From a virus (Duplodnaviria; Heunggongvirae; Uroviricota; Caudoviricetes): DNA of 17,538 nucleotides. Below the pieces are notes generated by a model. That model had not been told where the DNA came from and ran no database searches. It was given only the letters and a program-made list of their open reading frames with translations. Position 1 is the stretch's first letter; every line of letters starts with the position of its first letter. This document shows positions 594 through 17,538 of the stretch, piece after piece. The position numbers and the translations under genes were made by a program. The stretch lies in IMG/VR virus record IMGVR_UViG_2690316152_000010; one strand, given 5' to 3'.

Positions 594-635
594 AGCGACC
601 TCCCTTAACGTGGTGCTGCTGCTATTCTAAGTTGC

Positions 636-3599: not shown

Positions 3600-3654
3600 T
3601 AAGTAATATGCAGGCGGCGCAGTGCGTCGCCTCTGACTGAAAAGGAGACAACTG

Positions 3655-4029
3655 ATGAAAGATATCGATACTGAAACCCGGAATAACACCGTAGCGGATG
3701 ATGTGACGGCAGGTGAGGATATGGCTGTCGAACGTGGTGTAAAACTTTCCCGGCCAATTGAGCGTGGTGGCGAAAAAATCACATATGTGGAGATCACCGG
3801 GGCTATTGAGCAGGCGGGATCCCTGCGTGGTCTGTCGCTGTCTGATGTGCTGAATCTGAAAGCGGATACCATGTTCACGCTGTTGCCTCGCGTGACCTCG
3901 CCACGACTGGATGAAGTGATGATTAAAAAAATGTCGTCACGCGATTTTATTCGGTTGTGCGCTGTGGCTGTAAATTTTATGAGCGAGCCAGACTCTGGCG
4001 CGAAGAGCGTGCAGGAGACGGCAGCGTAA
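3655..4029 (+). CDS. E: Tail assembly chaperone E (P2 gpE family)
   Basis: Small acidic ORF directly upstream of the tape-measure gene, with an AAGGAG Shine-Dalgarno 8 nt before the ATG. A second frame stays open beyond its stop (see E'). Confidence 0.75.
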   Translation: MKDIDTETRNNTVADDVTAGEDMAVERGVKLSRPIERGGEKITYVEITGAIEQAGSLRGLSLSDVLNLKADTMFTLLPRVTSPRLDEVMIKKMSSRDFIRLCAVAVNFMSEPDSGAKSVQETAA

Positions 4030-4193
4030 TCACCCTGGTGTGCTTTGAGCACATCGAAGATCTGGTGGCGGATATTGCCGCCATTTTTAACTGGTCGCCC
4101 GCCGAAATCTTCATGATGACGCCCGGCGAAGTGGTTAGCTGGCGCGAGCGGGCGGCACTTCGCAGCGGGAATGCAGACAATGAAGACTCTTGA
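3655..4193 (+). CDS. E': Predicted E' (E+E') product made by a programmed -1 frameshift from E
   Basis: The -1 frame relative to E is open from 3927 to the TGA at 4191-4193 and has no credible start of its own. The heptamer A_AAT_TTT at 3972-3978 fits the X_XXY_YYZ slippery pattern in the E frame. The E' end overlaps the T start. Exact shift site is unverified. Confidence 0.45.
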
Positions 4194-6987
4194 TATCCGG
4201 GTCGCTTTCAGCGCCGTTGACAGGCTGACCCGGCCTGCCGAAAACGCCCGCCGCCTGATGGGGCAGTTTGGTGACTCCATCCAGCGAACGCAGGGGGCGA
4301 TCAAAAATCTCGAGCGTCAGGCGCGATCATTTGAGCGCGCCCGCGACGCTGTCAGTAAAGCGGATGCGGGTATCGTGAAAGCACGACGCCAGCTTAACGC
4401 CCTTAATCAGTTACAACGCACGGGTACAGTGCTCAGCGAAAAACAACAAAAGCTGATGCAGCAGTTAAGCACCCGGCTTGAACGCCTGAATGAATCGCGC
4501 ACACGGGAAATTCAGAAAATGCGGGAGCTTGGCGGAGAGCTGAAACGCCACGGCATTTCCCTGACAGGCAGCGATAACACCATCCAGCAGGCCATCAGAC
4601 GCACCGAACAGTACAACAACCAGCTTGAACGCGAACGGCAGGCGCTTGCGCGTGTAACGCGGGCGCGTGAGCGGTATTCGCGCGCGCAGGAAACCGCGGG
4701 AAAACTGAAAACAGGTGGTGCGCTGGCAATTGGTGCGGCAGCGGCGGGCGGCTATGCTGCCGGGCGTTTTTTGCAGCCTGCGATCGGGTTCGGCAAAGAG
4801 ATGTCCCGCGTTCAGGCACTGACGCGAATCGACAAAAACAGCCCGCAGTTTAAGGCGCTGCGTGAGCAGGCGTTAAAACTTGGCTCTGAAACACAGTTTA
4901 CTGCGAGTGATGCCGCCAGTGGGCAGAGCTTTCTGGCAATGGCTGGTTTTACTCCGCAGGCCATTCAGGCCGCATTGCCCGGTGTTCTTAATATGGCGCT
5001 GGCAGGTGGCGTCGAACTCGGCGAGACGGCGGATATAGGCTCCAATATCCTCACACAGTTCAACCTGACAGCCGATCAAATGGACCGGGTTGGCGATACG
5101 CTGACAGCGGCATTCACCCGGACCAATACTGATTTACGCGCGCTGGGCGAAACCATGAAGTATACCGGTCCGGTTGCCGCAAAACTTGGTATCAGTCTTG
5201 AAGAAGCGGCGGCCATGGCCGGGATGCTTGCCAATAATGGTCTTCGTGGAAGCGATGCTGGTACGGCCATGCGCGCAAGTCTGTCCCGCCTTGCATCACC
5301 GCCAAAAGCTGCGGCTGATGCGCTGAAAGAGCTGGGGGTGTCAGTTGCTGACGCCAGAGGCAAAATGCGCCCGATGGAGGATGTGCTGCTTGATCTCTAT
5401 AAGGCGACACAAAAATACGGACAGGTGGACCAGGTTTCCTTCTTCAAGGACATCGCCGGAGAAGAGGCGTTCGTTGGTTTGCAGACGCTTGTTGCTGCGG
5501 CTGGTTCAGGAGAGCTGCAAAAACTGACCAGAGAATTGCAGGGGGCAAGGGGAGAGGCCGATCGCGTCGCAAAAGTAATGGCCGATAATCTTGATGGGGA
5601 CCTGAAAAATCTCGACAGCGCATGGGAAGGTCTTCGTATTCGCATCAGTGATCTGGTTGACGGTCCGCTGCGTTCTGTCACGCAGTGGCTCACGCGGGTG
5701 CTTGAAAAAATCACCTCGCTGGCGCAGGCCCATCCGGTACTGACGCGCCAGCTACTGATAGCAGGCGGTGCGTTGCTGGCAATGACTGCAACGGTTGGCT
5801 CGTTGTCGCTGGCTATTGGTGTGCTTGCTGGCCCGCTGGCAAAACTGCGTCTTGGCTTTTCCCTCCTGACCGGTTCAATGAATGCTGTCAGACTCCTGCC
5901 AGCACTATGGGGAATGGTGACGGGTTCCGTTTCGTTACTGGGGGGCGCTATCGGGGCGTTGTTCAGTCCGGTCGGTCTTATCGTGGCTGCGCTTGCCGGA
6001 GCTGCCGTTCTCATCTGGAAATACTGGGATCCCATCAGGGCATTTTTTGCCGGGGTGTTCAGCGGGATTATGGAAAGGCTGACCCCGTTGCGCGAAACCT
6101 TTGAACGGTTTGGTCCTGTTTTTGACGCAATCGGAAGCGGGATCAGCCAGGTGTTTAACTGGTTTAAATCGCTGTTGTCACCGATGGAGTCCAGCAAGGA
6201 AACGCTGGATAAATGTACCAGTGCTGGCGAGATATTCGGTAACGTTCTTGGCGGTGCGTTACAACTTGTTCTGACACCTGCAAAAATGCTACTGGATACG
6301 CTGGCGTGGATACTTGAAAAACTTGGCGTCCTTCCGGATGAAGCGGAAAGGGCGCGCAAGAAAATCGAAGACGCACAGCGTGCGGCCATTCTTCAGGACA
6401 AGGTTGCCTTACTTCAGGGGGACCTGGCGAAAATCAATCCGCCGAAGCCTGTGGAAAATGGCAATGGCACCGGAGGTGATAAACCCAAAGACAACAAACC
6501 GCTCACAGACAGCAATACCGGGACGCTGCGCAGACTCAGCAAAATTGCTGATAACACAGGTAAGCTGGTTGATGAGACGAAAAAACGCATTGGCCCCGGC
6601 GATATTGTCTTTAAGAACCTGCCCCGCGCACTTGCTGTTCGTGGGGAGTGGCAGGAGCGGAAGATTGCGCAGGTCAGTAAGCCTGCCCCCGCAATTAATA
6701 TCACACCCGTGGTTCCGGCTCCGCTGCCTCCGGCGCTGGTCCCTGTTGTTGCGGCCAGCTCCCGCCCGGTGGCGGAGGCCATACGATCGCCAGTGGCATC
6801 AGCTCCTGCAACTTCCCGTAACCGGGAGCCTGTTGCCTCCGGATTTGGCGGTGAAATTCATGTTCATCTGCATAACATTGTTACACAGAATCCCCGCGAA
6901 CTGGCGAAACTGGTCGGTGAAATGGTTAGGGCAGAAATGGAACGGCGCGCCCGTGCCGGGCGTGGCAGTTTTTACGATAAAGATTGA
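4171..6987 (+). CDS. T: Tail tape-measure protein (P2 gpT family)
   Basis: 938 aa. N-terminal charged, coiled-coil-like region (many R/E/Q/L runs), central glycine/alanine-rich hydrophobic segments, Pro/Ala/Val-rich C-terminal region. Located after E/E'. The true start may be the second ATG at 4180, which has GGGAA 8 nt upstream. Confidence 0.9.
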   Translation: MQTMKTLDIRVAFSAVDRLTRPAENARRLMGQFGDSIQRTQGAIKNLERQARSFERARDAVSKADAGIVKARRQLNALNQLQRTGTVLSEKQQKLMQQLSTRLERLNESRTREIQKMRELGGELKRHGISLTGSDNTIQQAIRRTEQYNNQLERERQALARVTRARERYSRAQETAGKLKTGGALAIGAAAAGGYAAGRFLQPAIGFGKEMSRVQALTRIDKNSPQFKALREQALKLGSETQFTASDAASGQSFLAMAGFTPQAIQAALPGVLNMALAGGVELGETADIGSNILTQFNLTADQMDRVGDTLTAAFTRTNTDLRALGETMKYTGPVAAKLGISLEEAAAMAGMLANNGLRGSDAGTAMRASLSRLASPPKAAADALKELGVSVADARGKMRPMEDVLLDLYKATQKYGQVDQVSFFKDIAGEEAFVGLQTLVAAAGSGELQKLTRELQGARGEADRVAKVMADNLDGDLKNLDSAWEGLRIRISDLVDGPLRSVTQWLTRVLEKITSLAQAHPVLTRQLLIAGGALLAMTATVGSLSLAIGVLAGPLAKLRLGFSLLTGSMNAVRLLPALWGMVTGSVSLLGGAIGALFSPVGLIVAALAGAAVLIWKYWDPIRAFFAGVFSGIMERLTPLRETFERFGPVFDAIGSGISQVFNWFKSLLSPMESSKETLDKCTSAGEIFGNVLGGALQLVLTPAKMLLDTLAWILEKLGVLPDEAERARKKIEDAQRAAILQDKVALLQGDLAKINPPKPVENGNGTGGDKPKDNKPLTDSNTGTLRRLSKIADNTGKLVDETKKRIGPGDIVFKNLPRALAVRGEWQERKIAQVSKPAPAINITPVVPAPLPPALVPVVAASSRPVAEAIRSPVASAPATSRNREPVASGFGGEIHVHLHNIVTQNPRELAKLVGEMVRAEMERRARAGRGSFYDKD

Positions 6988-6993
6988 GGAGTC

Positions 6994-7488
6994 ATGGCCA
7001 TGATGATGATCTACGGCATGTTTGTTTTTGAGCTGCGCACGCTGCCGCATCAGCAGTTACAGCAAAACAAAAGCTGGCGGCATGTGAAAAATGAACGCGT
7101 TAACCGTTCAGCAGGCTGGCAGTATATCGGCGCAGGTGATGATCGCATTGTGCTTTCCGGCGTGCTTTATCCTGAAATTACAGGTGGCGAAGTGTCGCTT
7201 TCGTTGCTGACCACGCAGGCATATACAGGACGCCCCTGGCCTCTGATTGATGGTGTCGGGCAGATTTACGGCATGTATGTACTGACTGAAACGAATACGA
7301 CCCGTTCCGAGTTTGATCGCTATGGTAAGGCGAAAAAGATAGAATTTTCACTGACTCTTGAACGCTGTGATGAGGATTTGCGGGAGCGCCTGCAATCCTC
7401 ATCGTTCAGCGATATGCTGTCCGGCTTCAAAGATAAAGTGACATCATCTCTTAACAGCGCGGCCAGCTCCGTTAAAGGGCTGTTTTGA
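6994..7488 (+). CDS. U: Tail protein U (P2 gpU family)
   Basis: 164 aa beginning MAMMMIYGMFVFELRTLPHQ. Immediately downstream of T, with a GAGGAG Shine-Dalgarno. Size and position match gpU. Confidence 0.8.
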   Translation: MAMMMIYGMFVFELRTLPHQQLQQNKSWRHVKNERVNRSAGWQYIGAGDDRIVLSGVLYPEITGGEVSLSLLTTQAYTGRPWPLIDGVGQIYGMYVLTETNTTRSEFDRYGKAKKIEFSLTLERCDEDLRERLQSSSFSDMLSGFKDKVTSSLNSAASSVKGLF

Positions 7489-7495
7489 TTAACGC

Positions 7496-7525
7496 AAAAC
7501 CGCTAATGGTCAGATTAGCGGTTTT
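7496..7525. terminator. Bidirectional rho-independent terminator hairpin between U and the invertase
   Basis: Perfect 12-bp inverted repeat AAAACCGCTAAT / ATTAGCGGTTTT (7496-7507 and 7514-7525) with a 6-nt loop. A/T runs on both sides give a U-tract in either orientation. Sits 8 nt after the U stop and overlaps the invertase stop codon. Confidence 0.5.
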
Positions 7526-8114
7526 CATTTTCCTGAGTCTGTCTGGTTGTTTCTTCAGCCTGTATATCGCCTACAGGGTGATAACGATAAATCGTCGATA
7601 TGCCGATGTCGTAAATGATCGCCAGTTGTTTCCTGTCATGACCGTTTTTAATCAGCCTCGCTATTTGCTCGTGTTGTTCTTTTGTCAACTTCGGGCGACG
7701 TCCGCCAATGCGTCCTTGTGCGCGTGCTGCTGCCAGCCCGGCCAGTGTACGCTCTACAATTAATTCACGTTCCATTTCGGCTAAAGCCCCCATGACGTGA
7801 AAAAAGAAACGCCCCATGGGTGTTGACGTGTCAATGCTGTCCGTCAGACTACGGAAATTAACACCTTTTTCCCGCAATTCCTCAATAAGCGTGATCAGGT
7901 GTTTCATACTTCTGCCCAGTCTGTCCAGCTTCCAGACAACCAGCGTATCTCCTTCTGATAGCGTTCTGAGCAGTTTTTTCAATCCCGGTCTGGTTGATTT
8001 CGTTCCGCTGATTTTATCTTCAAAAATCAGTTCACATCCTGCGCAGTTCAGTGCATTGCGTTGTAAATCCGTGTTCTGGTCGTTTGTTGACACACGAATA
8101 TAGCCAATTTGCAT
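7515..8114 (-). CDS. Site-specific DNA invertase, serine recombinase of the Hin/Gin/Cin/Pin family
   Basis: Product starts MQIGYIRVSTNDQNTDLQRNAL and contains VVWKLDRLGRSMKHL, SLTDSIDTSTPMGRFFFHVMGALAEMERELI.ERT.AGLAAARA.GR.GGR.PKLT and a C-terminal helix-turn-helix region, all hallmark blocks of this family including the catalytic serine. AAAGAGGA Shine-Dalgarno upstream of the ATG at 8114. The track's 242-aa ORF is an upstream extension. Confidence 0.9.
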   Translation of the reverse strand: MQIGYIRVSTNDQNTDLQRNALNCAGCELIFEDKISGTKSTRPGLKKLLRTLSEGDTLVVWKLDRLGRSMKHLITLIEELREKGVNFRSLTDSIDTSTPMGRFFFHVMGALAEMERELIVERTLAGLAAARAQGRIGGRRPKLTKEQHEQIARLIKNGHDRKQLAIIYDIGISTIYRYHPVGDIQAEETTRQTQENENR

Positions 8115-8168
8115 AAAAAACATCCTCTTTGTTTCGTGAAAAATACAGAGTTGGTATAGGTAGGGATA

Positions 8169-8194
8169 AAAACGAAAACGTTGGTTTGGGGGAA
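8169..8194 (+). promoter_or_regulatory. Candidate invertase crossover site s1 at the 5' edge of cassette A
   Basis: AAAACGAAAACG-TT-GGTTTGGGGGAA. The right half and about 60 bp downstream are shared by every cassette junction. The AAACN-NN-GGTTT core resembles gix/hix/cix-type sites. The 26-bp boundaries are inferred, not demonstrated. Confidence 0.4.
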
Positions 8195-8647
8195 GGCTCT
8201 GCATTGCCTGTTGGTGTACCGGTTCCGTGGCCCACCGCCACACCGCCAGAAGGCTGGTTAAAGTGCGACGGGCGCGCCTTTACAAAAGAACAATATCCTG
8301 TTCTGGCCAGAGCCTACCCGACCCTCCGTCTTCCCGATTTACGCGGTGAATTTATTCGTGGCTGGGATGACGGACGTGGTGTGGATGCCGGGCGACAATT
8401 ATTATCTTCACAGGGGGATGCAATAAGAAATATTGAGGGATTCGCAGATGGCGGGATCGGTATGTCTTTTGATGCAATCAGAGGGGCTTTTTACGATGCA
8501 GGAACACGATCAGCGAGAATGCCGAATAACACAACTACTATAGACAAAACCGATGACCTTGGATTCGACGCCTCTCGTGTCGTGCCAACAGCTAATGAAA
8601 ACCGTCCTCGTAATATTGCCTTTAATTATATCGTAAGGGCGGCATAA
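8183..8647 (+). CDS. Promoterless tail-fibre C-terminal cassette A (alternative receptor-binding domain, tail-collar type)
   Basis: Open frame with no ATG start, beginning at the shared junction (GLGEGSALPVGVPVPWPTATPPEGWLKCDGRAFTKEQYPVLARAYPTL...LPDLRGEFIRGWDDGR) and ending ...RPRNIAFNYIVRAA*. Same N-terminal block and same end motif as the C-terminus of H. Confidence 0.75.
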   Translation, partial: GLGEGSALPVGVPVPWPTATPPEGWLKCDGRAFTKEQYPVLARAYPTLRLPDLRGEFIRGWDDGRGVDAGRQLLSSQGDAIRNIEGFADGGIGMSFDAIRGAFYDAGTRSARMPNNTTTIDKTDDLGFDASRVVPTANENRPRNIAFNYIVRAA

Positions 8648-8666
8648 AAACGTTGGTTTGGGGGAA
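8641..8666 (+). promoter_or_regulatory. Candidate invertase crossover site s2 at the 5' edge of cassette B
   Basis: GGCATAAAAACG-TT-GGTTTGGGGGAA, same core and downstream conserved block as s1 and s3. It overlaps the cassette A stop codon. Confidence 0.4.
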
Positions 8667-9131
8667 GGCTCTGCATTGCCTGTTGGTGTACCGGTTCCAT
8701 GGCCCACCGCCACACCGCCAGCAGGCTGGTTACAGTGCAACGGAGCTACGTTCACCAAAGAACAATATCCTGTTCTGGCCAGAGTCTACCCGACCCTCAG
8801 TCTTCCCGATTTACGCGGTGAGTTTATCCGTGGATGGGACGACGGGCGCAAGATTGACGAGGGGCGTAAGTTGCTTTCATGGCAGAAAGGTACACTGGTC
8901 GGCGGTCATGACGATAACGATTCTGCGCTTGATATCTCGTACATGAGTAACGGAAATAATATTGACTATGGCGGCGATAAGGTGTTTGCGGGGAATTACC
9001 GTAGCGATTATTTGTGGTACGCAATACTGGGTGGAACAAACAGTCGCGCAAAAGCCGAATTAAACGGAGCATTCTTTAACATAACCCGCCCCCGCAATAT
9101 CGCGTTTAACTATATCGTGAGGGCGGCGTGA
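8655..9131 (+). CDS. Promoterless tail-fibre C-terminal cassette B (alternative receptor-binding domain, tail-collar type)
   Basis: Starts with the shared junction block (GEGSALPVGVPVPWPTATPPAGWLQCNGATFTKEQYPVLARVYPTLSLPDLRGEFIRGWDDGRKIDEGRKLL), then a distinct distal domain, then ...RPRNIAFNYIVRAA*. No ATG start; the 'M' in the ORF track is a TTG. Confidence 0.75.
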   Translation, partial: GLGEGSALPVGVPVPWPTATPPAGWLQCNGATFTKEQYPVLARVYPTLSLPDLRGEFIRGWDDGRKIDEGRKLLSWQKGTLVGGHDDNDSALDISYMSNGNNIDYGGDKVFAGNYRSDYLWYAILGGTNSRAKAELNGAFFNITRPRNIAFNYIVRAA

Positions 9132-9137
9132 TACCGT

Positions 9138-9285
9138 TCAACTGGCAAGTGCCAGTGGCGCTTCCGGCCAGCTGATTTCAGGTGCCGTGCTGATATCCAG
9201 TGCGTTCAGCTCGTCGATATAATCCAGCACGGCGTTCAGTTTTGCCGTTTCTTCTGGTGTCAGACTGCGACCAGCACGCAGTTAA
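9138..9285 (-). pseudogene. 3' remnant of a tail-fibre assembly (tfa) gene: last ~48 codons only
   Basis: Exact reverse complement of the 3' end of the intact tfa (16430-16577). On its own strand the frame is closed by an in-frame TAA exactly where the homology ends, with no start codon. Confidence 0.7.
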
Positions 9286-9347
9286 CGCCGGGTGGGGCTG
9301 CCTGCAGATATAACGATATTATTCCGGCCGACCACTGCCTGCATGAT

Positions 9348-10826
9348 GTGCAGGATATGAGTACGCTGAATCATCCGAAGGCAGACCTGAGCAAAGGGCA
9401 GTACGGCTGTGTCGGCCAGGGCTTACATATTGCCAAAAAACTGCTCCCGTATATCCCGAATAACGCGGGGATCCTGCTGGTACCATGCTGTCGTGGTGGT
9501 TCGGCATTCACTCAGGGCGCGGAGGGAACATTCAGTACGACCACGGGGGCCAGCCAGGATTCGGCGCGCTGGGGTGTGGGTAAACCGTTATATCAGGACC
9601 TGATTGCGCGCACTAAAGCTGCATTACAGAAGAACCCGAAAAATGTGTTGCTGGCGGTGTGCTGGATGCAGGGCGAATTTGACATGAGCGCTGCCACCTA
9701 CGCACAGCAACCGGACCTGTTCACGGCCATGCTGAAGCAGTTCCGTACTGACCTTTCCGGATTTAACGCGCAGTGCCATGGCGGCAGTGCTGCAGTTGTA
9801 CCGTGGATTTGTGGCGACACGACGTATTACTGGAAAAACACATACGGCACACAGTATGACTCCGTCTACGGCGCGTACAAAAACAGGGAGAGCGACAACG
9901 TTTTCTTTGTGCCGTTCATGACCGACGGTAACGGCAACAACACGCCCACCAACTTACCGGCAGAAGACCCGGATATTGCTGATGCAGGTTATTACGGCGC
10001 GCAATCCCGTAGTAATGGTAATTGGGTATCGTCAAATCGTCCGACACATTTCAGTTCATGGGCGCGCAGGGGCATTATTTCGGATCGCCTGGCAACCGCT
10101 ATTCTGAACGCAGTTGGTCGAACCAGCGCCTTCATCAGCGGTACCGCACCGGAGATTAAACCCTCGCCCGGCGGCGACACTCCATCGGGGCCGTCTGATG
10201 GTGACACATCCGTTCGTACAGTCTCCCTGCTGCCGACAGCCGGAGAGGCTGCTGCGCAGGGCTGGACCATCACCGGCGGCAGTGTTGCGCTGGAAGATGG
10301 TGTGTTTAAGGTTACCAAGCAGAGCAATAAAACCTGGTCCCTGATGCATCCGGTGGATGACGCAGTCTCCCTGCTGACACGGGGTGGCAGACTGAGCTGT
10401 AAGTTTCGACTGTCAGGCGCACTGACCAACAACCAGTTCGGTCTGGGAATTTATCTGTATACCGATGTAGCGTTACCTGACGTCGTGGCGATGACCGGGA
10501 CTGGTAACCCGTTCCTGATGTCGTTCTTCACCCAGACCACAGACGGCAAACTGAATCTGATGCATCACAAGAAAGCCGGAAACACAAAGTTGGGCGAGTT
10601 CGGGAATTACAGTAACGACTGGCAGACGCTGGAGCTGGTGTTCACCGCCGGCAGTGCCACGGTTACTCCGAAACTGAATGGAGTGGCTGGCCCGGCATTC
10701 CAGGTCATAAAAGACAGTCTGACACTGGGGCTGAATGCGCTGACGTTAACTGATATCACTAAAAATGCCGCGTACGGCGTCGATATCGGCAGCCTGGTGC
10801 TGGAAATCAATAATCCCGCAGCATAA
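9348..10826 (+). CDS. Sialate O-acetylesterase-like protein (NanS/YjhS family, SASA/SGNH-hydrolase type); apparently 5'-truncated
   Basis: Contains NDIIP..HC.HDVQDM, GQ.LHIAKKLLPYIPNNAGILLVPCCRGGSAFT, CWMQGEFDM, CGDTTYYWK, AEDPD and FSSWARRGIISDR blocks that I recall from prophage and chromosomal 9-O-acetyl-sialate esterases. The reading frame is open upstream back to the repeat boundary at 9285 but has no ATG there. The expected N-terminal GQSN catalytic block is absent. Confidence 0.65.
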   Translation: MQDMSTLNHPKADLSKGQYGCVGQGLHIAKKLLPYIPNNAGILLVPCCRGGSAFTQGAEGTFSTTTGASQDSARWGVGKPLYQDLIARTKAALQKNPKNVLLAVCWMQGEFDMSAATYAQQPDLFTAMLKQFRTDLSGFNAQCHGGSAAVVPWICGDTTYYWKNTYGTQYDSVYGAYKNRESDNVFFVPFMTDGNGNNTPTNLPAEDPDIADAGYYGAQSRSNGNWVSSNRPTHFSSWARRGIISDRLATAILNAVGRTSAFISGTAPEIKPSPGGDTPSGPSDGDTSVRTVSLLPTAGEAAAQGWTITGGSVALEDGVFKVTKQSNKTWSLMHPVDDAVSLLTRGGRLSCKFRLSGALTNNQFGLGIYLYTDVALPDVVAMTGTGNPFLMSFFTQTTDGKLNLMHHKKAGNTKLGEFGNYSNDWQTLELVFTAGSATVTPKLNGVAGPAFQVIKDSLTLGLNALTLTDITKNAAYGVDIGSLVLEINNPAA

Positions 10827-10849
10827 GGAAGAGCAGGAGAGCAAAACAG

Positions 10850-11317
10850 ATGCTTAAGACAAACAGTCTGCGAGAGTCCATGCTTCATGGGTGTCGGTGG
10901 TGCCAGGCTAATCCCGAGAAATTCACCATTTTCGTGGAGAGCGGCAACATTGAAACGACCGGAGAAGCGCCCTCGTTTGTTTACCGCTATCAGATGGTGA
11001 TGTTTGTCATGGATTACGCCGGAGAGCTGGACGACCTCACGCTGCCGCTGCTGGCGTGGTTATCCGAAAATCAGCCACAGTTGTTGCTCAATCCGGAGCG
11101 TAATCAGGACATCAAATTTTCTGCCGTTATCAATGACGATGACAGCGCCGATCTCCTGTTTACGCTCCCCCTGCGGGAACGCGTTCGCATCACGCGCAAC
11201 AGTCAGGGCACACCGCAGGCAGAACACCTGCCGGAGCCAAAACCCCGTCTGCCCTCTTCCGAAGGCGACTGGTCGCATGTATTCCAGGATGTGACGTGGG
11301 GTGAAAGCGATGGATAA
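10850..11317 (+). CDS. R: Tail completion protein R (P2 gpR family)
   Basis: 155 aa, starting MLKTNSLRESM, with ...PLLAWLSENQP... in the middle, matching gpR in size and pattern. AGGAG Shine-Dalgarno upstream. Directly precedes the S/V/W/J/I/H block. Confidence 0.75.
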   Translation: MLKTNSLRESMLHGCRWCQANPEKFTIFVESGNIETTGEAPSFVYRYQMVMFVMDYAGELDDLTLPLLAWLSENQPQLLLNPERNQDIKFSAVINDDDSADLLFTLPLRERVRITRNSQGTPQAEHLPEPKPRLPSSEGDWSHVFQDVTWGESDG

Positions 11318-11945
11318 GGCATTCACCAGCGTGGATGAAACCTTTGAGGCTATCCGCGACAGCCTGAATCAGCAGGCCATCAATAACATCGCCAGAAAGC
11401 TGGCACAGGATTTACGTCGCGCCCAGCAGGCACGTATCCGATCACAAAAAGCGCCGGACGGGACCGAATGGACACCACGCAGACGCCGCGTAACCCGGAT
11501 ACAGGAGCGCATTCGCTTTATCTGGAATAACGAAGCACGCACGCTGAAAAACTGGCATCACGACACGGGGAAATACGGGCGAACCATTACCGGGTGGGAT
11601 GAGGATAAAAACAATATCCGCACGTTTTACCGGGATGACATCGACCGTTTTCTGGAAATACGCACCCGGCGCATCAACCAGGACAGCACAAAGCGCGTCC
11701 CCATGTTCGTAAAACTGCGCACCGCCCGCTACCTGAAAGCCCGTGCAGATGCCTCCGGTGTGACGGTGGGTTACAGCGGCGTGGCCGCACGTATTGCACG
11801 CGTTCATCAGTTCGGTGAGCGCGATCAGGTTGCGCCGGGCATTTTCACCGATTACCCGGTACGTGAGCTGTTGGGTATCAGCCAGGCAGATGAGCGCCTG
11901 ATTTATAACACGGTGCTGGGCCGGATTGCGGAGGCTGTACGGTGA
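11310..11945 (+). CDS. S: Virion morphogenesis / tail completion protein S (P2 gpS family)
   Basis: Position between R and V. Contains QKAPDGT.W.PRR and VHQFG motifs that I associate with gpS-type proteins. Overlaps the R stop. The alternative GTG start at 11301 is possible. Confidence 0.65.
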   Translation: MDKAFTSVDETFEAIRDSLNQQAINNIARKLAQDLRRAQQARIRSQKAPDGTEWTPRRRRVTRIQERIRFIWNNEARTLKNWHHDTGKYGRTITGWDEDKNNIRTFYRDDIDRFLEIRTRRINQDSTKRVPMFVKLRTARYLKARADASGVTVGYSGVAARIARVHQFGERDQVAPGIFTDYPVRELLGISQADERLIYNTVLGRIAEAVR

Positions 11946-12523
11946 GCGCAGAACTCATGCGACTGCTGAGCAACATCATCCGCACCGGGATCATCTCTGA
12001 AGTTGATGAGAAGTCCTGGCGCGTGCGCGTTCGCAGCGGCGAACTGGAAACAGGCTGGTTGCGCTGGAACACCACGCGCGCGGGAGCCTTCAATGTGTGG
12101 CTGCCGCCATCACCAGGCGAACAGGTGGTAATTGCCTGCATTGGCGGCAACCCGGAAACCGCCATGATAATTGGCAGCCTGTGGAGTGATGCCAGTCCGG
12201 CCCCCGGCAAAAGCCTGAAAGAAATCGTGGTCAGCGCGCCGGATGGCGCGGTGTTCCGCTACGACGCAGACGCTGGCGCACTGAGCGCCAGCGGCATGAA
12301 AACAGCCACCCTGCAGGCATCCGTCAGCGTGACACTGGATACGCCCGTCGTGGAATGCACAAACCTTCTGAGAACAGCGACGCTTGACGTCACAAAAGGG
12401 GGAAAGATGAGCGGCAATATCACGCACAGCGGCGGCAACTTCACCTCAAACGGCATCACAGTGCATACGCATAAACACGGTGGTGTGAAAGGCGGCAGCG
12501 ATTCGACAGGAGGCCCGCAGTGA
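11942..12523 (+). CDS. V: Baseplate spike/assembly protein V (P2 gpV family)
   Basis: N-terminal IRTGIISEVD...GWLRW..TRAG....W.PP.PGEQVV and C-terminal TLDTPVVECTN...KGGKMSGNITHSGGNFTSNGITVHTHKH are characteristic gpV blocks. GTG start overlaps the S stop, with GGAGG upstream. Confidence 0.9.
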   Translation: MSAELMRLLSNIIRTGIISEVDEKSWRVRVRSGELETGWLRWNTTRAGAFNVWLPPSPGEQVVIACIGGNPETAMIIGSLWSDASPAPGKSLKEIVVSAPDGAVFRYDADAGALSASGMKTATLQASVSVTLDTPVVECTNLLRTATLDVTKGGKMSGNITHSGGNFTSNGITVHTHKHGGVKGGSDSTGGPQ

Positions 12524-12870
12524 CAACCCGCTACACAGGAATGAATCCGGACGGGACGGGAAACCTGAATGATATGGAGCACCTGAAACAGTCAGCCAGG
12601 GACATCCTGACCACCCCGCTGGCCAGCCGGGTTATGCGACGGGAATATGGCAGCCTTGTACCTGATTTGATTGACGAACCCATGAATAACACCACGCGTC
12701 TGCAATGCATGAGTGCTGCCGTGATTGCGCTGACACGATGGGAACCCCGCATTGCCCTGGACGCCATCGACGTTGTCTGGAAAGCGGGAGGCCGCGCCGG
12801 GGTGACGCTGTCGGGCACTGTCATGCAGACCATGCAGAATGTTGAGTTAACCATCACGCTGAGGGAGTAA
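12520..12870 (+). CDS. W: Baseplate wedge protein W (P2 gpW / T4 gp25-like lysozyme fold family)
   Basis: MTTRYTGMN...DLEHL.QS..DIL.TP..SRVMRR.YGS start and 116-aa size match gpW. GTG start overlaps the V stop, with AGGAGG 7 nt upstream. Confidence 0.9.
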   Translation: MTTRYTGMNPDGTGNLNDMEHLKQSARDILTTPLASRVMRREYGSLVPDLIDEPMNNTTRLQCMSAAVIALTRWEPRIALDAIDVVWKAGGRAGVTLSGTVMQTMQNVELTITLRE

Positions 12871-12873
12871 ATC

Positions 12874-13770
12874 ATGCCTGCTGTTGACCTTTCCCAGTTA
12901 CCGGAACCCGCCATCATCGCGAAGCCTGATTTTGAGGCAATTCTGGCTGACACAAAGGCCATGATGATTGCGTCCTATCCTGCCGAACAGCGTGAAGCCG
13001 TCTCCGCCGCGCTGGAGCTGGAATCGGAACCCCTGAACGTTATCGCCCAGACAACAGCGTTTCGTGAAATGCTGTTACGCCAGCGGGTCAATGAGGGTGC
13101 ACGCGCCTGCATGTTAAGCCACAGCGCCGGGACAGACCTGGACAACCTCGCGGGCAATATGAACACAAAGCGCCTGGTTATCACTCCGGCAACGGATACC
13201 ACCGACGCGGTGATGGAAAGCGACACATCGCTGAGACTGCGGGCGCAACGGGCGTATGACGGTCTGAGTGTTGCTGGCCCGTCAGGCGCATACGAGTATT
13301 TTGCACGCAGCGCCAGCGGTCTGGTACGCGACGCGCGAGCCATCAGCCCGTCTCCGGCCAACGTGACGGTTTCCATCCTGTCCACTGAAGGCGACGGCAC
13401 AGCAACGGAGGCGTTGCTTAATACCGTTCGCGCCGTTCTGAATGCAGAGGATACCCGCCCGGTGGCCGACCGCCTGACCGTACAGAGCGCCAGAATCGTG
13501 ACATGGCGGCTGAATGCAAAACTGTACTTTTACCCCGGCCCGGAATCCGAACCTATTCTGGCCGCGGCTGAATCGTCGTTCAGGAAGTGGCTGGCTGAGC
13601 AGGGGCTTATCGGTCAGGACGTGGCGTTGTCCGCCATTGCTGCCGCACTGCATGTGCACGGTGTGCAACGCGTGGAGATAATCGAACCCACACAGAATAT
13701 GGCCATCAGCGACATACAGGCGGCGCGCTGTGAGTCATTCACCATCAGCGAAGGTGGACGCAATGAGTAA
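12874..13770 (+). CDS. J: Baseplate protein J (P2 gpJ family)
   Basis: 298 aa, in the position and of the size expected for gpJ between W and I. GAGGGAG Shine-Dalgarno upstream. Confidence 0.85.
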   Translation: MPAVDLSQLPEPAIIAKPDFEAILADTKAMMIASYPAEQREAVSAALELESEPLNVIAQTTAFREMLLRQRVNEGARACMLSHSAGTDLDNLAGNMNTKRLVITPATDTTDAVMESDTSLRLRAQRAYDGLSVAGPSGAYEYFARSASGLVRDARAISPSPANVTVSILSTEGDGTATEALLNTVRAVLNAEDTRPVADRLTVQSARIVTWRLNAKLYFYPGPESEPILAAAESSFRKWLAEQGLIGQDVALSAIAAALHVHGVQRVEIIEPTQNMAISDIQAARCESFTISEGGRNE

Positions 13771-14371
13771 TTCGTTGTTACCACCATCAGCCAGCAATTT
13801 CATGCGTTGTGCCGAAGCCGTCGGAACACGCATTACAGACATTCCGGTAGACCTCAACACGCTGTGGTCGCCGGACACCTGCCCGGTGCATCTGCTGCCT
13901 TATCTCGCCTGGGCGTTTTCCGTTGACCGCTGGGATCGCAACTGGCCGGAAGAGACAAAGCGACAGGTGATTCGTGATGCATGGCTGATACACCGACACA
14001 AAGGGACCATCAGCGCACTGCGAAGAGCCGTGGAGCCTCTCGGCTACCTGATTGAAGTAAAGGAGTGGTGGCAACTCAACGAGGAGCCGGGAACATTTCG
14101 CATTGTTGTCGGAGTACTTGATCAGGGCATCACCGATGAAATGTATCAGGAACTTGAGCGCCTTATTGCGGATGCAAAACCAGTAAGTCGCCATCTGACG
14201 GGGCTGGCGATCAGCCTGAGTGTGAACGGAAAGATTTTCGTTGGTACGGGATGCTATCACGGCGATGCCCTGACGGTTTATCCCTACACCCCGGAGTCCA
14301 TTATTGTCGAAGGGGATTATTTCCCTGCCCCGGCCATTCATTTAATTGATAATCTGAGAGTAAACGCATGA
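13763..14371 (+). CDS. I: Baseplate/tail protein I (P2 gpI family)
   Basis: MSNSLLPPSAS... with LW.PDTCP..LLPYLAWAFSVDRWD..WPEETKR.VIRDA, GTFR..VGVL..GITDEMYQELERLIADAKP.SRHL. Start taken at the ATG at 13763 (AAGGTGGA Shine-Dalgarno), overlapping the J stop, rather than the longer track ORF from 13730. Confidence 0.85.
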   Translation: MSNSLLPPSASNFMRCAEAVGTRITDIPVDLNTLWSPDTCPVHLLPYLAWAFSVDRWDRNWPEETKRQVIRDAWLIHRHKGTISALRRAVEPLGYLIEVKEWWQLNEEPGTFRIVVGVLDQGITDEMYQELERLIADAKPVSRHLTGLAISLSVNGKIFVGTGCYHGDALTVYPYTPESIIVEGDYFPAPAIHLIDNLRVNA

Positions 14372-15963
14372 CAGTGAAATACTACGCCATTCTGACTAAT
14401 CAGGGCGCGGCACGACTGGCTAACGCGACGATGCTCGGCAGTAAGCTGAATCTGACGCGAATGGCCGTTGGTGATGCAAATGGTGTGTTACCAACACCAG
14501 ACCCTGCACAAACAAAACTGATTAACCAGAAACGCATTGCACCGCTGAATCTTCTGAGTGTTGACCCTAACAATCAGAGCCAGATTATTGCGGAGCAAAT
14601 CATCCCTGAAAGCGAGGGTGGATTCTGGATCCGTGAGATTGGTCTTTATGATGATAAAGGTGTACTCATTGCGGTGGCAAACTGCCCGGAAACGTACAAA
14701 CCGCAGTTGCAGGAAGGCAGTGGACGCACCCAGACTATCCGCATGATTCTGGTTGTCACGAACACCGAAGCCATCACGCTGAAAATCGACCCGTCTGTGG
14801 TTCTGGCAACCCGCAAATATGTGGATGATAAAATCTCAAAGCACGAGCAGTCACGACGTCACCCGGACGCCTCGCTGACCGCAAAAGGCTTTGTTCAACT
14901 TAGCAGTGCCACGGACAGTCAATCAGAAACTGAGGCTGCCACGCCGAAGGCTGTGAAAATCGCGTATGATCTGGCCTGGGGAAAATACACAGCCCAGGAT
15001 GCAACAACGACCCGTAAAGGGATCGTACAACTGAGCAGTGCCACCAACAGCACCTCTGAAACGCTGGCCGCCACACCAAAAGCCGTCAAGGCGGCATACG
15101 ACCTTGCAGCCGGCAAGGCCCCCGTCAGCCACACTCACCCATGGAGTCAGATAACGGGAGTGCCTGCTGCCTCGCTGACGGCAAAAGGCACCGTACAACT
15201 GAGCAGTGCCATCAACAGCACGTCTGAAATACTGGCCGCCACACCGAAAGCGGTCAAGGATGCATACGATCTGGCAAACGGAAAACAACCGGCAGATGCC
15301 ACGCTCACTGCTCTGGCAGGACTTGCCACTGCAGCAGATCGGTTGCCTTATTTTACCGGAGCAGACCGCGCAGCGCTGGCAACCCTTACAGCTATTGGTC
15401 GCGCTATTATCGCTAAGGGCAGTATAAAAGATGTCCTCAATTACCTTGGTTTGGGGGAAGGCTCTGCATTGCCTGTTGGTGTACCGGTTCCGTGGCCCAC
15501 CGCCACACCGCCAGAAGGCTGGTTAAAGTGCGACGGGCGCGCCTTTACAAAAGAACAATATCCTGTTCTGGCCAGAGCCTACCCGACCCTCAGTCTTCCC
15601 GATTTACGCGGTGAGTTTATCCGTGGATGGGACGACGGGCGCAAAGTTGATACAGGACGTAAGTTGCTGTCCGCACAAGGGGCAACGCTGTTAAGAACAG
15701 CAATGCTGGATTATTATAACCAGGACACTACGGGAACCTCGGGGATAGTCGGCATGGGATTCAACAATGAAGATTCCATTACAGACCTTCGTGAGGGCAG
15801 CTTTAAAATGCCGGACGGGACAACATTCAGCGATCCTGTCGTGGCAATGTCAGACAATGGTATGCAGGCTACTATTCTGACCTCTATCAGAAGCGGGTAT
15901 GCGAAGGGTATCACTGTCAGACCCCGTAGCATTGCACTTAATTACATTGTGAGGGCAGTTTAA
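14368..15963 (+). CDS. H: Tail fibre protein H (P2 gpH family): constant N-terminal shaft (to ~15447) fused to the currently expressed variable C-terminal domain
   Basis: Strong gpH blocks: GGFWIREIGLYDD.G.LIAVAN, HEQSRRHPDASLTAKGFVQLSSAT, repeated SETLAATPKAVKAAYDLA units, KQP.DATLTALAGLATAADR.PYFTG. From the shared junction (LNYLGLGEGSALPVGVPVPWP...) onward it carries a third variant of the tail-collar C-terminal domain, ending ...RPRSIALNYIVRAV*. Confidence 0.9.
   Translation: MTVKYYAILTNQGAARLANATMLGSKLNLTRMAVGDANGVLPTPDPAQTKLINQKRIAPLNLLSVDPNNQSQIIAEQIIPESEGGFWIREIGLYDDKGVLIAVANCPETYKPQLQEGSGRTQTIRMILVVTNTEAITLKIDPSVVLATRKYVDDKISKHEQSRRHPDASLTAKGFVQLSSATDSQSETEAATPKAVKIAYDLAWGKYTAQDATTTRKGIVQLSSATNSTSETLAATPKAVKAAYDLAAGKAPVSHTHPWSQITGVPAASLTAKGTVQLSSAINSTSEILAATPKAVKDAYDLANGKQPADATLTALAGLATAADRLPYFTGADRAALATLTAIGRAIIAKGSIKDVLNYLGLGEGSALPVGVPVPWPTATPPEGWLKCDGRAFTKEQYPVLARAYPTLSLPDLRGEFIRGWDDGRKVDTGRKLLSAQGATLLRTAMLDYYNQDTTGTSGIVGMGFNNEDSITDLREGSFKMPDGTTFSDPVVAMSDNGMQATILTSIRSGYAKGITVRPRSIALNYIVRAV
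14869..15276 (+). repeat. Three in-frame tandem repeat units inside H
   Basis: Units at about 14869-14976, 15013-15108 and 15169-15276 encode near-identical (A)SLTAKG.VQLSSAT.S.SE.LAATPKAVK.AYDLA segments. The strong nucleotide similarity also produces the shadow ORFs on the opposite strand at 14919-15288. Confidence 0.8.
15434..15459 (+). promoter_or_regulatory. Candidate invertase crossover site s3 at the constant/variable junction of H
   Basis: TCCTCAATTACC-TT-GGTTTGGGGGAA. The left half is H-constant sequence; the right half and the following ~60 bp are identical to the cassette junctions at s1 and s2. Confidence 0.45.
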
Positions 15964-16577
15964 TGAGTAACACTGCAGTTCTGGATGAAAACGGTATCGC
16001 CACTGTAGCGGGCGATATCACTGTATATCACTATGACGAGGAAACCCGGGAATACACCTCATCCTCTGTGGAGTATCTCGCCCTTGGGGTGGGTACTCCG
16101 GCACATTCGTGCGCCGATGCACCGCCGGAGGCAATTTCGGGTTACGTGGTTTGCCGGACTGCCACGCTGAACGGGTGGGAGCATGTGCCTGATCACCGCG
16201 GCGAGACGGTATACAGCACGGAGAACGGTAACCCTGTTCTGATTACCCAACCGGGTGATTACCCGGCGGACACCACCACAAAACAGCCAGCCACGCCATG
16301 GGATACCTGGAACGGTGAGGCGTGGGTAACCGATACTGAACGGCAGCGAGCCGCAGAACTGGAGGTTGCCAGACAGCAACGCCAGCAACGGGTGAAACAG
16401 GCGATGGCGTCCGTCGATCTTATCAACCTCAAACTGCGTGCTGGTCGCAGTCTGACACCAGAAGAAACGGCAAAACTGAACGCCGTGCTGGATTATATCG
16501 ACGAGCTGAACGCACTGGATATCAGCACGGCACCTGAAATCAGCTGGCCGGAAGCGCCACTGGCACTTGCCAGTTGA
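15963..16577 (+). CDS. Tail fibre assembly chaperone (Tfa / P2 gpG / Mu U-like)
   Basis: 204 aa, directly after H with a TAATG stop/start overlap. C-terminal ...LTPEE.AKLNAVLDYIDELNALDISTAPEISWPE.P is typical of Tfa-family chaperones. Confidence 0.8.
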   Translation: MSNTAVLDENGIATVAGDITVYHYDEETREYTSSSVEYLALGVGTPAHSCADAPPEAISGYVVCRTATLNGWEHVPDHRGETVYSTENGNPVLITQPGDYPADTTTKQPATPWDTWNGEAWVTDTERQRAAELEVARQQRQQRVKQAMASVDLINLKLRAGRSLTPEETAKLNAVLDYIDELNALDISTAPEISWPEAPLALAS

Positions 16578-16583
16578 ACGGTA

Positions 16584-17060
16584 TCACGCCGCCCTCACGA
16601 TATAGTTAAACGCGATATTGCGGGGGCGGGTTATGTTAAAGAATGCTCCGTTTAATTCGGCTTTTGCGCGACTGTTTGTTCCACCCAGTATTGCGTACCA
16701 CAAATAATCGCTACGGTAATTCCCCGCAAACACCTTATCGCCGCCATAGTCAATATTATTTCCGTTACTCATGTACGAGATATCAAGCGCAGAATCGTTA
16801 TCGTCATGACCGCCGACCAGTGTACCTTTCTGCCATGAAAGCAACTTACGCCCCTCGTCAATCTTGCGCCCGTCGTCCCATCCACGGATAAACTCACCGC
16901 GTAAATCGGGAAGACTGAGGGTCGGGTAGACTCTGGCCAGAACAGGATATTGTTCTTTGGTGAACGTAGCTCCGTTGCACTGTAACCAGCCTGCTGGCGG
17001 TGTGGCGGTGGGCCATGGAACCGGTACACCAACAGGCAATGCAGAGCCTTCCCCCAAACC
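16584..17060 (-). CDS. Inverted copy of tail-fibre cassette B (promoterless variable C-terminal domain)
   Basis: Encoded 157-aa sequence is identical to 8658-9131. Converges on the tfa stop, 6 nt away. Confidence 0.75.
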   Translation of the reverse strand, partial: GLGEGSALPVGVPVPWPTATPPAGWLQCNGATFTKEQYPVLARVYPTLSLPDLRGEFIRGWDDGRKIDEGRKLLSWQKGTLVGGHDDNDSALDISYMSNGNNIDYGGDKVFAGNYRSDYLWYAILGGTNSRAKAELNGAFFNITRPRNIAFNYIVRAA

Positions 17061-17074
17061 AACGTTTTTATGCC
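17049..17074 (-). promoter_or_regulatory. Candidate invertase crossover site s4 (inverted copy of s2)
   Basis: Mirror image of 8641-8666 within the inverted repeat. Confidence 0.4.
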
Positions 17075-17532
17075 GCCCTTACGATATAATTAAAGGCAAT
17101 ATTACGAGGACGGTTTTCATTAGCTGTTGGCACGACACGAGAGGCGTCGAATCCAAGGTCATCGGTTTTGTCTATAGTAGTTGTGTTATTCGGCATTCTC
17201 GCTGATCGTGTTCCTGCATCGTAAAAAGCCCCTCTGATTGCATCAAAAGACATACCGATCCCGCCATCTGCGAATCCCTCAATATTTCTTATTGCATCCC
17301 CCTGTGAAGATAATAATTGTCGCCCGGCATCCACACCACGTCCGTCATCCCAGCCACGAATAAATTCACCGCGTAAATCGGGAAGACGGAGGGTCGGGTA
17401 GGCTCTGGCCAGAACAGGATATTGTTCTTTTGTAAAGGCGCGCCCGTCGCACTTTAACCAGCCTTCTGGCGGTGTGGCGGTGGGCCACGGAACCGGTACA
17501 CCAACAGGCAATGCAGAGCCTTCCCCCAAACC
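17068..17532 (-). CDS. Inverted copy of tail-fibre cassette A (promoterless variable C-terminal domain)
   Basis: Encoded sequence is identical to cassette A (8183-8647). Confidence 0.75.
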   Translation of the reverse strand, partial: GLGEGSALPVGVPVPWPTATPPEGWLKCDGRAFTKEQYPVLARAYPTLRLPDLRGEFIRGWDDGRGVDAGRQLLSSQGDAIRNIEGFADGGIGMSFDAIRGAFYDAGTRSARMPNNTTTIDKTDDLGFDASRVVPTANENRPRNIAFNYIVRAA

Positions 17533-17538
17533 AACGTT
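17521..17538 (-). promoter_or_regulatory. Candidate invertase crossover site s5 (inverted copy of s1), truncated by the window end
   Basis: Mirror image of 8177-8194. The outer half-site lies beyond the window. Confidence 0.3.

Follow-up and report, generated by a model that had tools for sequence, protein, structure and literature searches.

Retargeting a phage or tailocin means exchanging its tail-fiber tips and their chaperones, and each tip is usually expected to travel with its own Tfa. The p15B Min system (Sandmeier, Iida, and Arber, 1990 to 1992) reportedly combines a Din-family invertase with more than two sites and several fiber-gene 3′ ends, as does the locus described here, but is said to differ from it in having six crossover sites, more cassettes, and a phage-plasmid backbone. 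In the P2-like prophage of enteropathogenic E. coli (EPEC) E2348/69, a three-site, four-variant fiber locus was demonstrated by PCR (Goldberg et al. 2014, PMC4272514). Here we analyze a 17,538-nt stretch of viral DNA, referred to below as the window, in which a P2-like E. coli prophage carries, in its tail-fiber gene H, a multiple-inversion switch of the Gin/Pin/Min type whose invertible part spans positions 15448 to 17532. Whereas the G segment of Mu, the C segment of P1, and the P segment of e14 have two sites and two tips with a tfa gene behind each (S-U, S′-U′), the window has three sites, three tips, and one tfa, and so departs from the plan of two sites with a private tfa for each tip.

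Results

Gene H spans 14368 to 15963 (plus strand; 531 amino acids [aa]), and Pfam places in it a Phage_tail_fib domain, three Phage_fiber_2 repeats, and a Collar domain. Its constant part up to the crossover core, Hc (14368 to 15447, plus strand), holds the Phage_tail_fib domain and the three repeats and is 99% identical to a "phage tail protein" of E. coli DA33135. Hc is now fused to Hv (15448 to 15963, plus strand), a Collar tip with the C terminus RPRSIALNYIVRAV. The stop codon of H overlaps the ATG of tfa (15963 to 16577, plus strand; 204 aa), a predicted tail-fiber assembly gene that has its own GAGG ribosome-binding site, as read from the sequence, and is the only intact copy. Caudo_TAP spans Tfa residues 79 to 199 (E = 3.5e-28, Pfam), and homologues of this gene encode Caudo_TAP_N plus Caudo_TAP. 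Two promoterless collar tips lie beyond on the minus strand: B′ (16584 to 17057), convergent on tfa with 6 nt between the stop codons, and A′ (17068 to 17529), for which natural Hc-A fusions are known. A′ ends at a crossover site and B′ at the tfa stop codon, neither with a tfa of its own.

All three tips have a Collar domain (E = 1e-15 to 1e-16, Pfam); no NCBIfam family matched the fiber, the tips, or tfa. The tips resemble one another in size and domain plan, have the collar part and a C-terminal motif in common, and begin with a shared 5′ block of 229 to 240 nt at 83 to 90% identity. Among PDB structures Hv matches the T4 gp37 tip (2XGF, E = 9e-14), with the C-terminal motif IAFNYIVR aligned. 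No HxH iron-binding needle repeats are visible in the translations of Hv, A, or B, where the inserts are only ∼80 to 100 aa. The C terminus of Hv is deviant, reading RPRSIALNYIVRAV versus RPRNIAFNYIVRAA in every tfa-less tip.

Three 26-bp crossover sites in inverted orientation, each with a 2-bp core, lie at the constant/variable boundary of H. Junction alignment showed that s1, s2, and s3 have AAACC-AA-like half-sites and a TT core in common, and exact-match positions place an identical 16-mer, TTGGTTTGGGGGAAGG, at each. Site s1 (15434 to 15459, plus strand; TCCTCAATTACC-TT-GGTTTGGGGGAA, core 15446-15447) was located by alignment, by the 16-mer, and by the inversion end-points of natural isomers; s2 (17049 to 17074, minus strand), which reads GGCATAAAAACG-TT-GGTTTGGGGGAA on that strand with its core at 17061-17062, overlaps the A′ stop codon; and s3 (17521 to 17538, minus strand; core 17533-17534) is cut by the window end, with a full copy at 8169 to 8194. 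The invertible region is exactly the DNA lying between the outer cores.

Between the sites lie two segments: X, which comprises the Hv tip, tfa, and B′, and Y, which consists of A′. A Gin-like invertase encoded next door would flip X plus Y or X alone (nested inversions of 2088 and 1616 bp), yielding four isomers: XY, with Hv on and tfa in sense; X′Y, with B on and tfa antisense; Y′X′, with A on and tfa antisense; and Y′X, reached by two successive inversions, with A on and Hv-tfa following in sense. The predicted outcome is a single shaft that can carry any of three T4-gp37-like collar tips. With three sites and four isomers, one fiber gene has more than two alternative C termini, three tips in all, and the Hc-B and Hc-A fusions are in frame in silico. 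Modeling the gene order after inversion also corrects the first-pass annotation, which had tfa antisense to the fiber after any inversion: this holds for B and for one A isomer, whereas in Y′X the order Hc-A, Hv-tfa is restored to sense. Under the four-isomer geometry only B can never share an orientation with tfa.

Three of these isomers were each found in a different complete genome, on DNA of at least 99% identity and with the inversions breaking at the cores: XY in E. coli DA33135, X′Y in RIVM_C036569 (1620 nt inverted, 99.2% identity), and Y′X′ in AVS0225 (2092 nt inverted, 99.2% identity). A clean Y′X isomer was not found among the complete genomes inspected, which counts against the explanation that we favor below; Y′X junction queries there returned X′Y arrays, two-tip arrays, and one rearranged array. 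In OZ040015 the Hc-A, Hv-tfa junction stands in sense within a rearranged array. Intact fusion genes of both kinds, Hc-B and Hc-A, are seen in many complete genomes, with Hc-B present in ∼200.

For B, dN/dS against a Salmonella homologue is 0.065, with synonymous sites saturated, and for A it is 0.17 to 0.18; B is under purifying selection. Some of the selection recorded in these ratios may have acted before the cassettes lost tfa genes of their own. The idea that A and B are relics, already raised in the first-pass annotation, or that the B-on and A-on states are nonproductive, draws on the cassettes' lack of a chaperone gene and on arrays that are visibly rearranged in OZ040015, strain 4/0, and S. 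Typhi. We regard it as most unlikely, since the isomers occur naturally and B is under selection; the dN/dS values, the intact reading frames and in-frame fusions of both cassettes, and the spread of the module at high identity (below) all argue against it.

The Gin-like serine DNA invertase (7515 to 8114, minus strand; Resolvase plus HTH_7) is found in the window only beside a duplicated copy of part of the switch. It matches Mu Gin (3UJ3/4M6F) with E = 1e-90 over 185 aa, is ∼75 to 80% identical to it, and conserves Ser9. The gene adjoins s3 both in the left copy and in DA33135, the closest complete genome (99.1% identity), where the invertase and then tail genes U and T come after A′; by synteny, the same invertase gene probably follows s3 beyond position 17538. 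There is no second tfa beyond the corresponding point in DA33135.

The duplicated copy (8177 to 9283, mapped onto DA33135) repeats A, B, and the final 146 nt of tfa in inverted orientation, and forms with 16432 to 17538 the inverted repeat I1, 1107 nt at 100% identity. The stretch at 9138 to 9285 that had been taken for a separate 48-codon tfa remnant lies inside this repeat and is a copy of the 3′ end of that tfa. At a chimeric junction (9279 to 9284), the interior of tfa (reverse complement) is joined to the interior of a SASA/DUF6645 gene, with the microhomology CAGTT. No exact match to this junction occurs in 5426 complete E. coli genomes or in viral, genome, and metagenome contig collections, and phage record 503046 was ruled out as its source. 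The window is chimeric or inverted-duplicated at this position, so other findings that rest on 7515 to 9285 need re-reading. A real fold-back inverted duplication, as opposed to an assembly or amplification chimera, is improbable: the 5-nt microhomology also fits replication template switching, but the copies are 100% identical over 1107 nt although the element differs by 1 to 2% from its nearest relatives, tfa and the SASA gene are both cut short at the junction, which recurs in none of the genomes or three contig collections, and s3, inside which the window stops, is a typical place for an assembly to break.

The arrangement of three tips with one intact tfa, placed in cis only behind the currently expressed H tip and faced by a convergent B′, was correctly recognized in the first-pass annotation and proves to be real and general. 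Among complete E. coli genomes, ∼11% have a tfa solely behind Hv with one or two tfa-less tips; the module occurs there on three backbones, across which it is at least 99% identical, and one tfa with two or three tips is also found in Salmonella. The same Hv-tfa-B′ module, together with a third tip, is found on a P1/D6-like phage-plasmid. Arrays differ in their tips, of which there are at least six types, and as many as three tips share one tfa. This layout is a conserved mobile module and no accident of the window.

Relatives in which the cassettes do carry their own tfa, for which the first-pass annotation had proposed to look, exist. The variable part of A is 100% identical in phage SKA5 and 95% identical in E. 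coli 025542-1. Both have a symmetric array, in which A has behind it a tfa of its own (197 aa, 52% identity with that of the window) and a further tfa-tip pair lies opposite. By contrast, A is bare in the window, and its homology to the symmetric arrays stops at the A stop codon, where s2 begins. Strain 025542-1 carries the same invertase protein (WP_000904922.1), and its backbone is that of the EE72d prophage (L002), which holds a tfa-poor array. In Logan contig L008 a B-like tip (62% identity) likewise has a tfa of its own behind it, and HK97 Stf has an A-like tip (52% identity). The tfa genes of A and of the B-like tip belong to the same subfamily as that of the window over their full length (52% and 42% identity; 34 to 49% in the N-terminal parts), unlike the tip variable parts, which barely align.

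We favor a shared, class-level chaperone, an inferred step: Tfa would serve collar tips as a class and would not be private to Hv. It would act in cis and in sense for Hv and for one A isomer, and in trans, from putative transcripts, in the remaining isomers. The common subfamily of the tfa genes that accompany A and B-like tips points this way, as do the collar part and C-terminal motif common to all tips and the GAGG site of tfa. Lambda Tfa is also said, in work from 1996 by Hashemolhosseini, to be able to replace T4 gp38. T4 gp37, itself a collar-type tip, needs a chaperone (PMC9608196).

Several observations fit a different reading, in which Tfa serves only Hv, perhaps staying bound in the Hv adhesin as in Mu, and the bare tips trimerize alone, so that the orientation of tfa is irrelevant to them. 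Of the 5426 complete E. coli genomes, 620 have the N-terminal part of tfa, which is contiguous with Hv in 597 of them; in these arrays tfa never follows another tip, and its alleles do not change with the partner tips. Hv alone has the deviant C terminus, which together with the linkage suits a private Hv-Tfa pair. B has been conserved and is frequently joined to Hc even though it invariably converges on tfa, and the searches described below gave no expression route for an inverted tfa. North et al. 2019, cited via PMC9608196, further hold that the Tfa N-terminal domain confers fiber specificity. Against such a private pair stand the same-subfamily tfa genes behind A in SKA5 and 025542-1 and behind the B-like tip in L008, the requirement of the structural relative T4 gp37 for gp38 (PMC9608196), and the likeness of the three tips in size and domain plan. 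We consider a private chaperone possible, though tentative.

For Tfa to reach B and one A isomer, the shared-chaperone reading would call for expression of an inverted tfa. Sigma-70-like promoter and terminator scans for an independent tfa promoter gave results at chance level, and no promoter or activator site that would drive the inverted gene exceeded chance. A P2 Ogr-type dyad (TGT-N12-ACA) at 8130 to 8147 beside s3 was rejected, with 4 matches against 4.5 expected, no −10 element at the right distance, and no conservation in the EE72d flank. A start codon supplied from outside s3 (172-aa open reading frame, 8129 to 8647) was discarded, as a stop codon lies in frame in the EE72d flank. Transcription entering from the convergent FI-U operon is blocked by a strong bidirectional terminator at 7496 to 7525 (12-bp stem), which weighs against a shared chaperone, and the other backbones lack the operon. 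A hidden 109-aa open reading frame antisense to tfa that might serve B was also dismissed; synonymous-codon shuffles reproduce its open length in every homologue.

Tfa for B-on and A-on particles could in principle come from tfa genes of other resident prophages. Several fiber/tfa loci are common in E. coli genomes, and array queries matched a median of two to three places per genome. The window's own tfa, though, is present in a median of one copy per carrier genome, so a second copy cannot generally supply Tfa (a point that also counts against the shared chaperone), and other tfa subfamilies share only the C-terminal 40 to 80 residues with it. A phage relying on helper prophages would, moreover, fail in new hosts, and we judge such supply very unlikely.

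Discussion

A multiple-inversion switch together with a class-level Tfa for whichever collar tip is fused has, as a joint explanation, about an even chance of being correct. The stronger proposition, that one Tfa encoded on the invertible segment chaperones at least six unrelated-looking collar tips in any orientation, or that otherwise the RPRNIAFNYIVRAA tips are chaperone independent, is doubtful but worth stating. A generalist Tfa would imply orientation-independent expression of tfa, for example, from a promoter inside the conserved 5′ block of the cassettes, and would make retargeting of collar-type fibers simpler. Were the bare tips chaperone free, comparison with Hv should reveal what creates dependence. 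On either reading, the arrays would be a natural system for studying Tfa recognition. Roughly one complete E. coli genome in nine has a module that breaks the rule that a tip travels with its own Tfa, and in it B is always on the strand opposite tfa.

The tips resemble those of T4 gp37 and lambda Stf in combining a Collar domain with an IAFNYIVR strand, and those tips depend on a chaperone (PMC9608196). T4 gp37 differs in its HxH needle and gp38-type chaperone (with gp57A), whereas the window has much shorter inserts and a chaperone of the Tfa type. As in the Mu G, P1 C, and e14 P segments, a site lies at the boundary between the constant and variable parts of the fiber, and tfa lies directly 3′ of the expressed tip. 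EPEC E2348/69, likened to the window here by description, also has three partly homologous inverted repeats, two nested inversions (∼2200 and 1800 bp versus 2088 and 1616 bp), and three C termini, and its four variants coexist; the portion of that account describing the locus makes no mention of a chaperone asymmetry like that of the window (PMC4272514). With a Gin-like invertase beside s3, 26-bp inverted sites, and natural isomers, the locus has these features of the Din family, and its invertible three-tip fiber switch is an already known kind of DNA-flipping switch.

Organization of the fiber locus

A tail fiber locus of the P2 type occupies the right end of the window. Gene H (14368-15963, plus strand; 531 aa) carries a Phage_tail_fib N terminus, three Phage_fiber_2 repeats, and a C-terminal Collar domain, and its stop codon overlaps the ATG of tfa (15963-16577, plus strand), whose 204-aa product matches Caudo_TAP (E = 3.5e-28). 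Two promoterless cassettes, B′ (16584-17057) and A′ (17068-17529), lie on the strand opposite to H, each encoding an alternative tip with a Collar domain; the tip of H itself (Hv) comprises its final 171 codons, following the constant part (Hc). Hv, B′, and A′ share a 5′ block of 229 to 240 nt (83 to 90% identity) and the C-terminal motif RPR(N/S)IA(F/L)NYIVRA, and each block starts with a Gin/Cin/Pin-type 26-bp crossover site. Site s1 (TCCTCAATTACC-TT-GGTTTGGGGGAA, core 15446-7) is in (+) orientation, while s2 (core 17061-2), whose left half overlaps the A′ stop codon, and s3 (core 17533-4), which is cut by the window end, are inverted (-). Because the outer cores lie at s1 and s3, the region singled out by the first-pass annotation (15448-17532) is exactly the DNA between them. 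Each of the three tips aligns with the T4 gp37 tip (2XGF; E = 9e-14) across its collar domain and through the returning C-terminal strand (IAFNYIVR), and each also matches 9CUY, a "short tail fiber" chain; they differ from gp37 in that the HxH needle motif is absent from Hv, A, and B alike. The collar 5′ blocks (window 15448-15690, 16830-17066, and 17300-17532; also loci L004 and L005) look homogenized within an array: the collar residues of window A are those of Hv, but where this A variable part occurs in phage SKA5 and strain 025542-1 it is joined to another collar version, a pattern that suggests concerted evolution.

The closest complete Escherichia coli genome, DA33135, is 99.1% identical to the window over 14368-17538. 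There, a recombinase gene comes next after A′, with U, T, E, FII, and FI beyond it on the opposite strand, as in the left copy within the window, and the flank beyond A′ contains no second tfa. The earlier count of three tips to one intact tfa, which a second tfa just beyond the window would have overturned, therefore stands. A distance of 66 bp separates the s3 core from the start of the invertase gene (7515-8114, minus strand), whose product matches Mu Gin (E = 1e-90) with Ser9 conserved. The FI-FII-E-T-U tail operon (window 1903-7525; L001 21860-27445) is reversed compared with the canonical gene order of P2 and converges on the invertase gene; since D and ogr keep their original orientation, D is divergent from FI. 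A hairpin at 7496-7525 (12-bp stem, flanked by an A-run and a T-run) separates this operon from the invertase gene and is likely a bidirectional terminator. Nothing resembling a terminator follows tfa on the plus strand (15963-17538), so that late transcription of H may continue across the antisense cassettes and into the downstream invertase gene.

A probably chimeric window

The two arms of an inverted repeat, 8177-9283 and 16432-17538, are 100% identical over 1,107 nt. On DA33135, positions 1-9283 of the window map in reverse complement to hok-ogr-D-FI-FII-E-T-U-invertase-A-B-tfa(3′), and positions 9308-17538 map in forward orientation to SASA/DUF6645(3′)-R-S-V-W-J-I-H-tfa-B′-A′; as these segments overlap, one prophage piece is present twice. 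At the junction (9279-9284), internal tfa sequence meets internal sequence of an esterase gene at a CAGTT microhomology. None of the complete E. coli genomes searched spans the junction, and exact matches were absent from the viral, genome, and metagenome collections. The duplication is most likely an assembly or amplification chimera; a real fold-back duplication, with 8177-9283 as a genuine second copy, is improbable. The 48-codon tfa "remnant" reported at 9138-9285 is accordingly not a separate gene: it duplicates the 3′ end of the intact tfa. The esterase gene (SASA family, DUF6645; 9348-10826) is flanked by the lysis genes and tail gene R, is 5′ truncated in the window by the chimeric junction (626 aa in DA33135), and has similar genes in many STEC and EPEC prophages. 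At the left, the window start coincides exactly with the end of a hok/gef-family gene (1-141), which in DA33135 is the last prophage gene before serS, so that this end falls at a prophage boundary.

Four isomers and their occurrence in natural genomes

With segments X (Hv, tfa, B′) and Y (A′), modeling of the post-inversion order gives four isomers reachable from s1, s2, and s3 (a prime marks an inverted segment). XY places Hv on Hc with tfa in sense; X′Y and Y′X′ place B and A, respectively, on Hc with tfa antisense; and Y′X places A on Hc, followed by Hv-tfa in sense. The Hc-A and Hc-B fusions are both in frame in silico. The proposal that any inversion leaves tfa antisense thus holds for X′Y and Y′X′ but fails for the A-on isomer Y′X, while B is never co-oriented with tfa because the two converge on the same segment.

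An in silico query joining the Hc-B junction to antisense tfa found uninterrupted matches at ≥99% identity, with roughly 200 complete genomes covering at least 80% of it. As the B variable part occurs in 197 genomes, most B carriers were assembled B-on, a predominance that clonal descent may explain. RIVM_C036569 carries the three-tip array as X′Y (1,620 nt inverted, 99.2%), and AVS0225 carries Y′X′ on the same P2-like backbone (2,092 nt inverted, 99.2%). Junction queries against complete genomes found no clean Y′X isomer; OZ040015 has Hc-A and then Hv-tfa in sense, in a rearranged array with A twice and B deleted. At this locus (NZ_OZ040015 3089094-3097911), tfa lacks its final 30 nt, B is largely deleted, and a second A′ follows; either the deletion and duplication are genuine or a population of mixed orientation was misassembled. 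E. coli 4/0 (NZ_CP023849 952173-960455) has an A-Hv-tfa-B′ array without the constant H part, lying between two invertase genes that derive from different backbones, which suggests recombination between prophages via their arrays.

One tfa among many tips

The unit Hv-tfa-B′ forms a two-tip array by itself in the EE72d prophage and, on a P2-like backbone, in 266917_2, OZ040035, and TUM13770. It is joined by A as the third tip in the window and by other third tips in EC21GDE043 and the phage-plasmid p1_000533; in Ecol_276, Hv-tfa faces yet another tip type, and a Salmonella array likewise has a single tfa. At least six collar-tip types take part in arrays, with tfa directly after Hv only. The N-terminal part of tfa was found in 620 of 5,426 complete genomes (mostly ≥99% identical; median copy number per genome, 1), and in 597 of the 620 Hv directly adjoins it. 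The asymmetry noted at first pass is far beyond chance, real, and general across arrays, a conserved design; we found no discussion of it in the portions of the literature accessible to us. Hits H163 to H165 (266917_2, OZ040035, and TUM13770) mark the A cassette as a presence/absence polymorphism, and these two-tip arrays directly adjoin the same invertase, with junctions 99.5 to 99.8% identical.

The first-pass annotation had suggested looking for related cassettes with their own tfa, and such cassettes exist for both tip types. The variable part of A is 100% identical in SKA5 and 95% identical in 025542-1, and in both a 197-aa tfa begins with an ATG that overlaps the A stop codon. In a Logan contig, a tip resembling B (62% identity) precedes a 196-aa tfa. 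The A-linked and B-like-linked tfa genes are homologous to the window tfa over their full length (52% and 42% identity; N-terminal parts, 34 to 49%), whereas Tfa proteins of other fiber classes have only the C-terminal 40 to 80 residues in common with it. Homology between the window and SKA5 ends at the A stop codon, which is the start of s2. In SKA5, sequence at the 5′ end of the tfa linked to A (L005 3740-3775, GAAACC-TG-TTTTTGATGAAAA), compared with window 17049-17074, loosely resembles a crossover site and hints that pseudo-site recombination could have separated A from its chaperone.

The first-pass annotation also raised the possibility that A and B are nonfunctional relics. B has a dN/dS of 0.065 against a Salmonella homolog (79% amino acid identity; pS 0.72, with synonymous sites saturated) and 0.15 to 0.22 against the 62% homolog, and A has 0.17 to 0.18 against the 025542-1 allele, although some of this constraint may have accrued before the cassettes lost chaperones of their own. 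These values make the relic reading unlikely.

Discussion

Our results show the switch and its four isomers, and they show the bare cassettes to be a widespread, selected design. Of the initial observation, the three tips and single tfa were upheld, but not the separate remnant or the universal antisense state; of its interpretation, the real and general asymmetry survives and the relic option is disfavored.

For the folding of the bare tips we favor, at roughly even confidence, a class-level Tfa that would serve whichever collar tip is fused to Hc, because A-type and B-type tips elsewhere keep a Tfa of the same subfamily, the collar and C-terminal strand are common to all tips, and their structural relative gp37 needs a chaperone. 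According to Hashemolhosseini and colleagues in 1996, gp38 is reportedly replaceable by lambda Tfa. Folding of gp37 requires gp57A and gp38 (PMC9608196, PMC7289586), and Mu Tfa, according to the same sources, is retained on the virion, its variable N-terminal domain binding the distal fiber and its conserved C-terminal domain trimerizing.

The weak point of the class-level model is expression of tfa when inverted. In sequence scans, candidate promoters and Ogr-type sites were no more frequent than chance predicts, the DNA flanking the array does not consistently provide a start codon, and a second tfa copy is usually absent from genomes with the window-type tfa; the strong bidirectional terminator predicted between the convergent FI-U operon and the invertase gene counts against read-in. 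A candidate hidden antisense gene was also rejected. The main rival, that Tfa is private to Hv and bare tips fold without help, draws on the 96% Hv-tfa linkage and on the deviant C terminus found in Hv alone, and we consider it possible but the less probable reading. The asymmetry has a bearing on the specificity of Tfa and on fiber engineering.

The window system is a Din-family multiple-inversion fiber switch, and it belongs to the class known from p15B Min, likewise a Din-family multiple-inversion fiber switch, and from the P2-like prophage of EPEC E2348/69. For the latter, sequencing and PCR demonstrated three repeats with nested inversions of ∼2.2 and ∼1.8 kb and four coexisting variants with three C termini (PMC4272514), the same layout as in the window, where the inversion distances are 2,088 and 1,616 bp.
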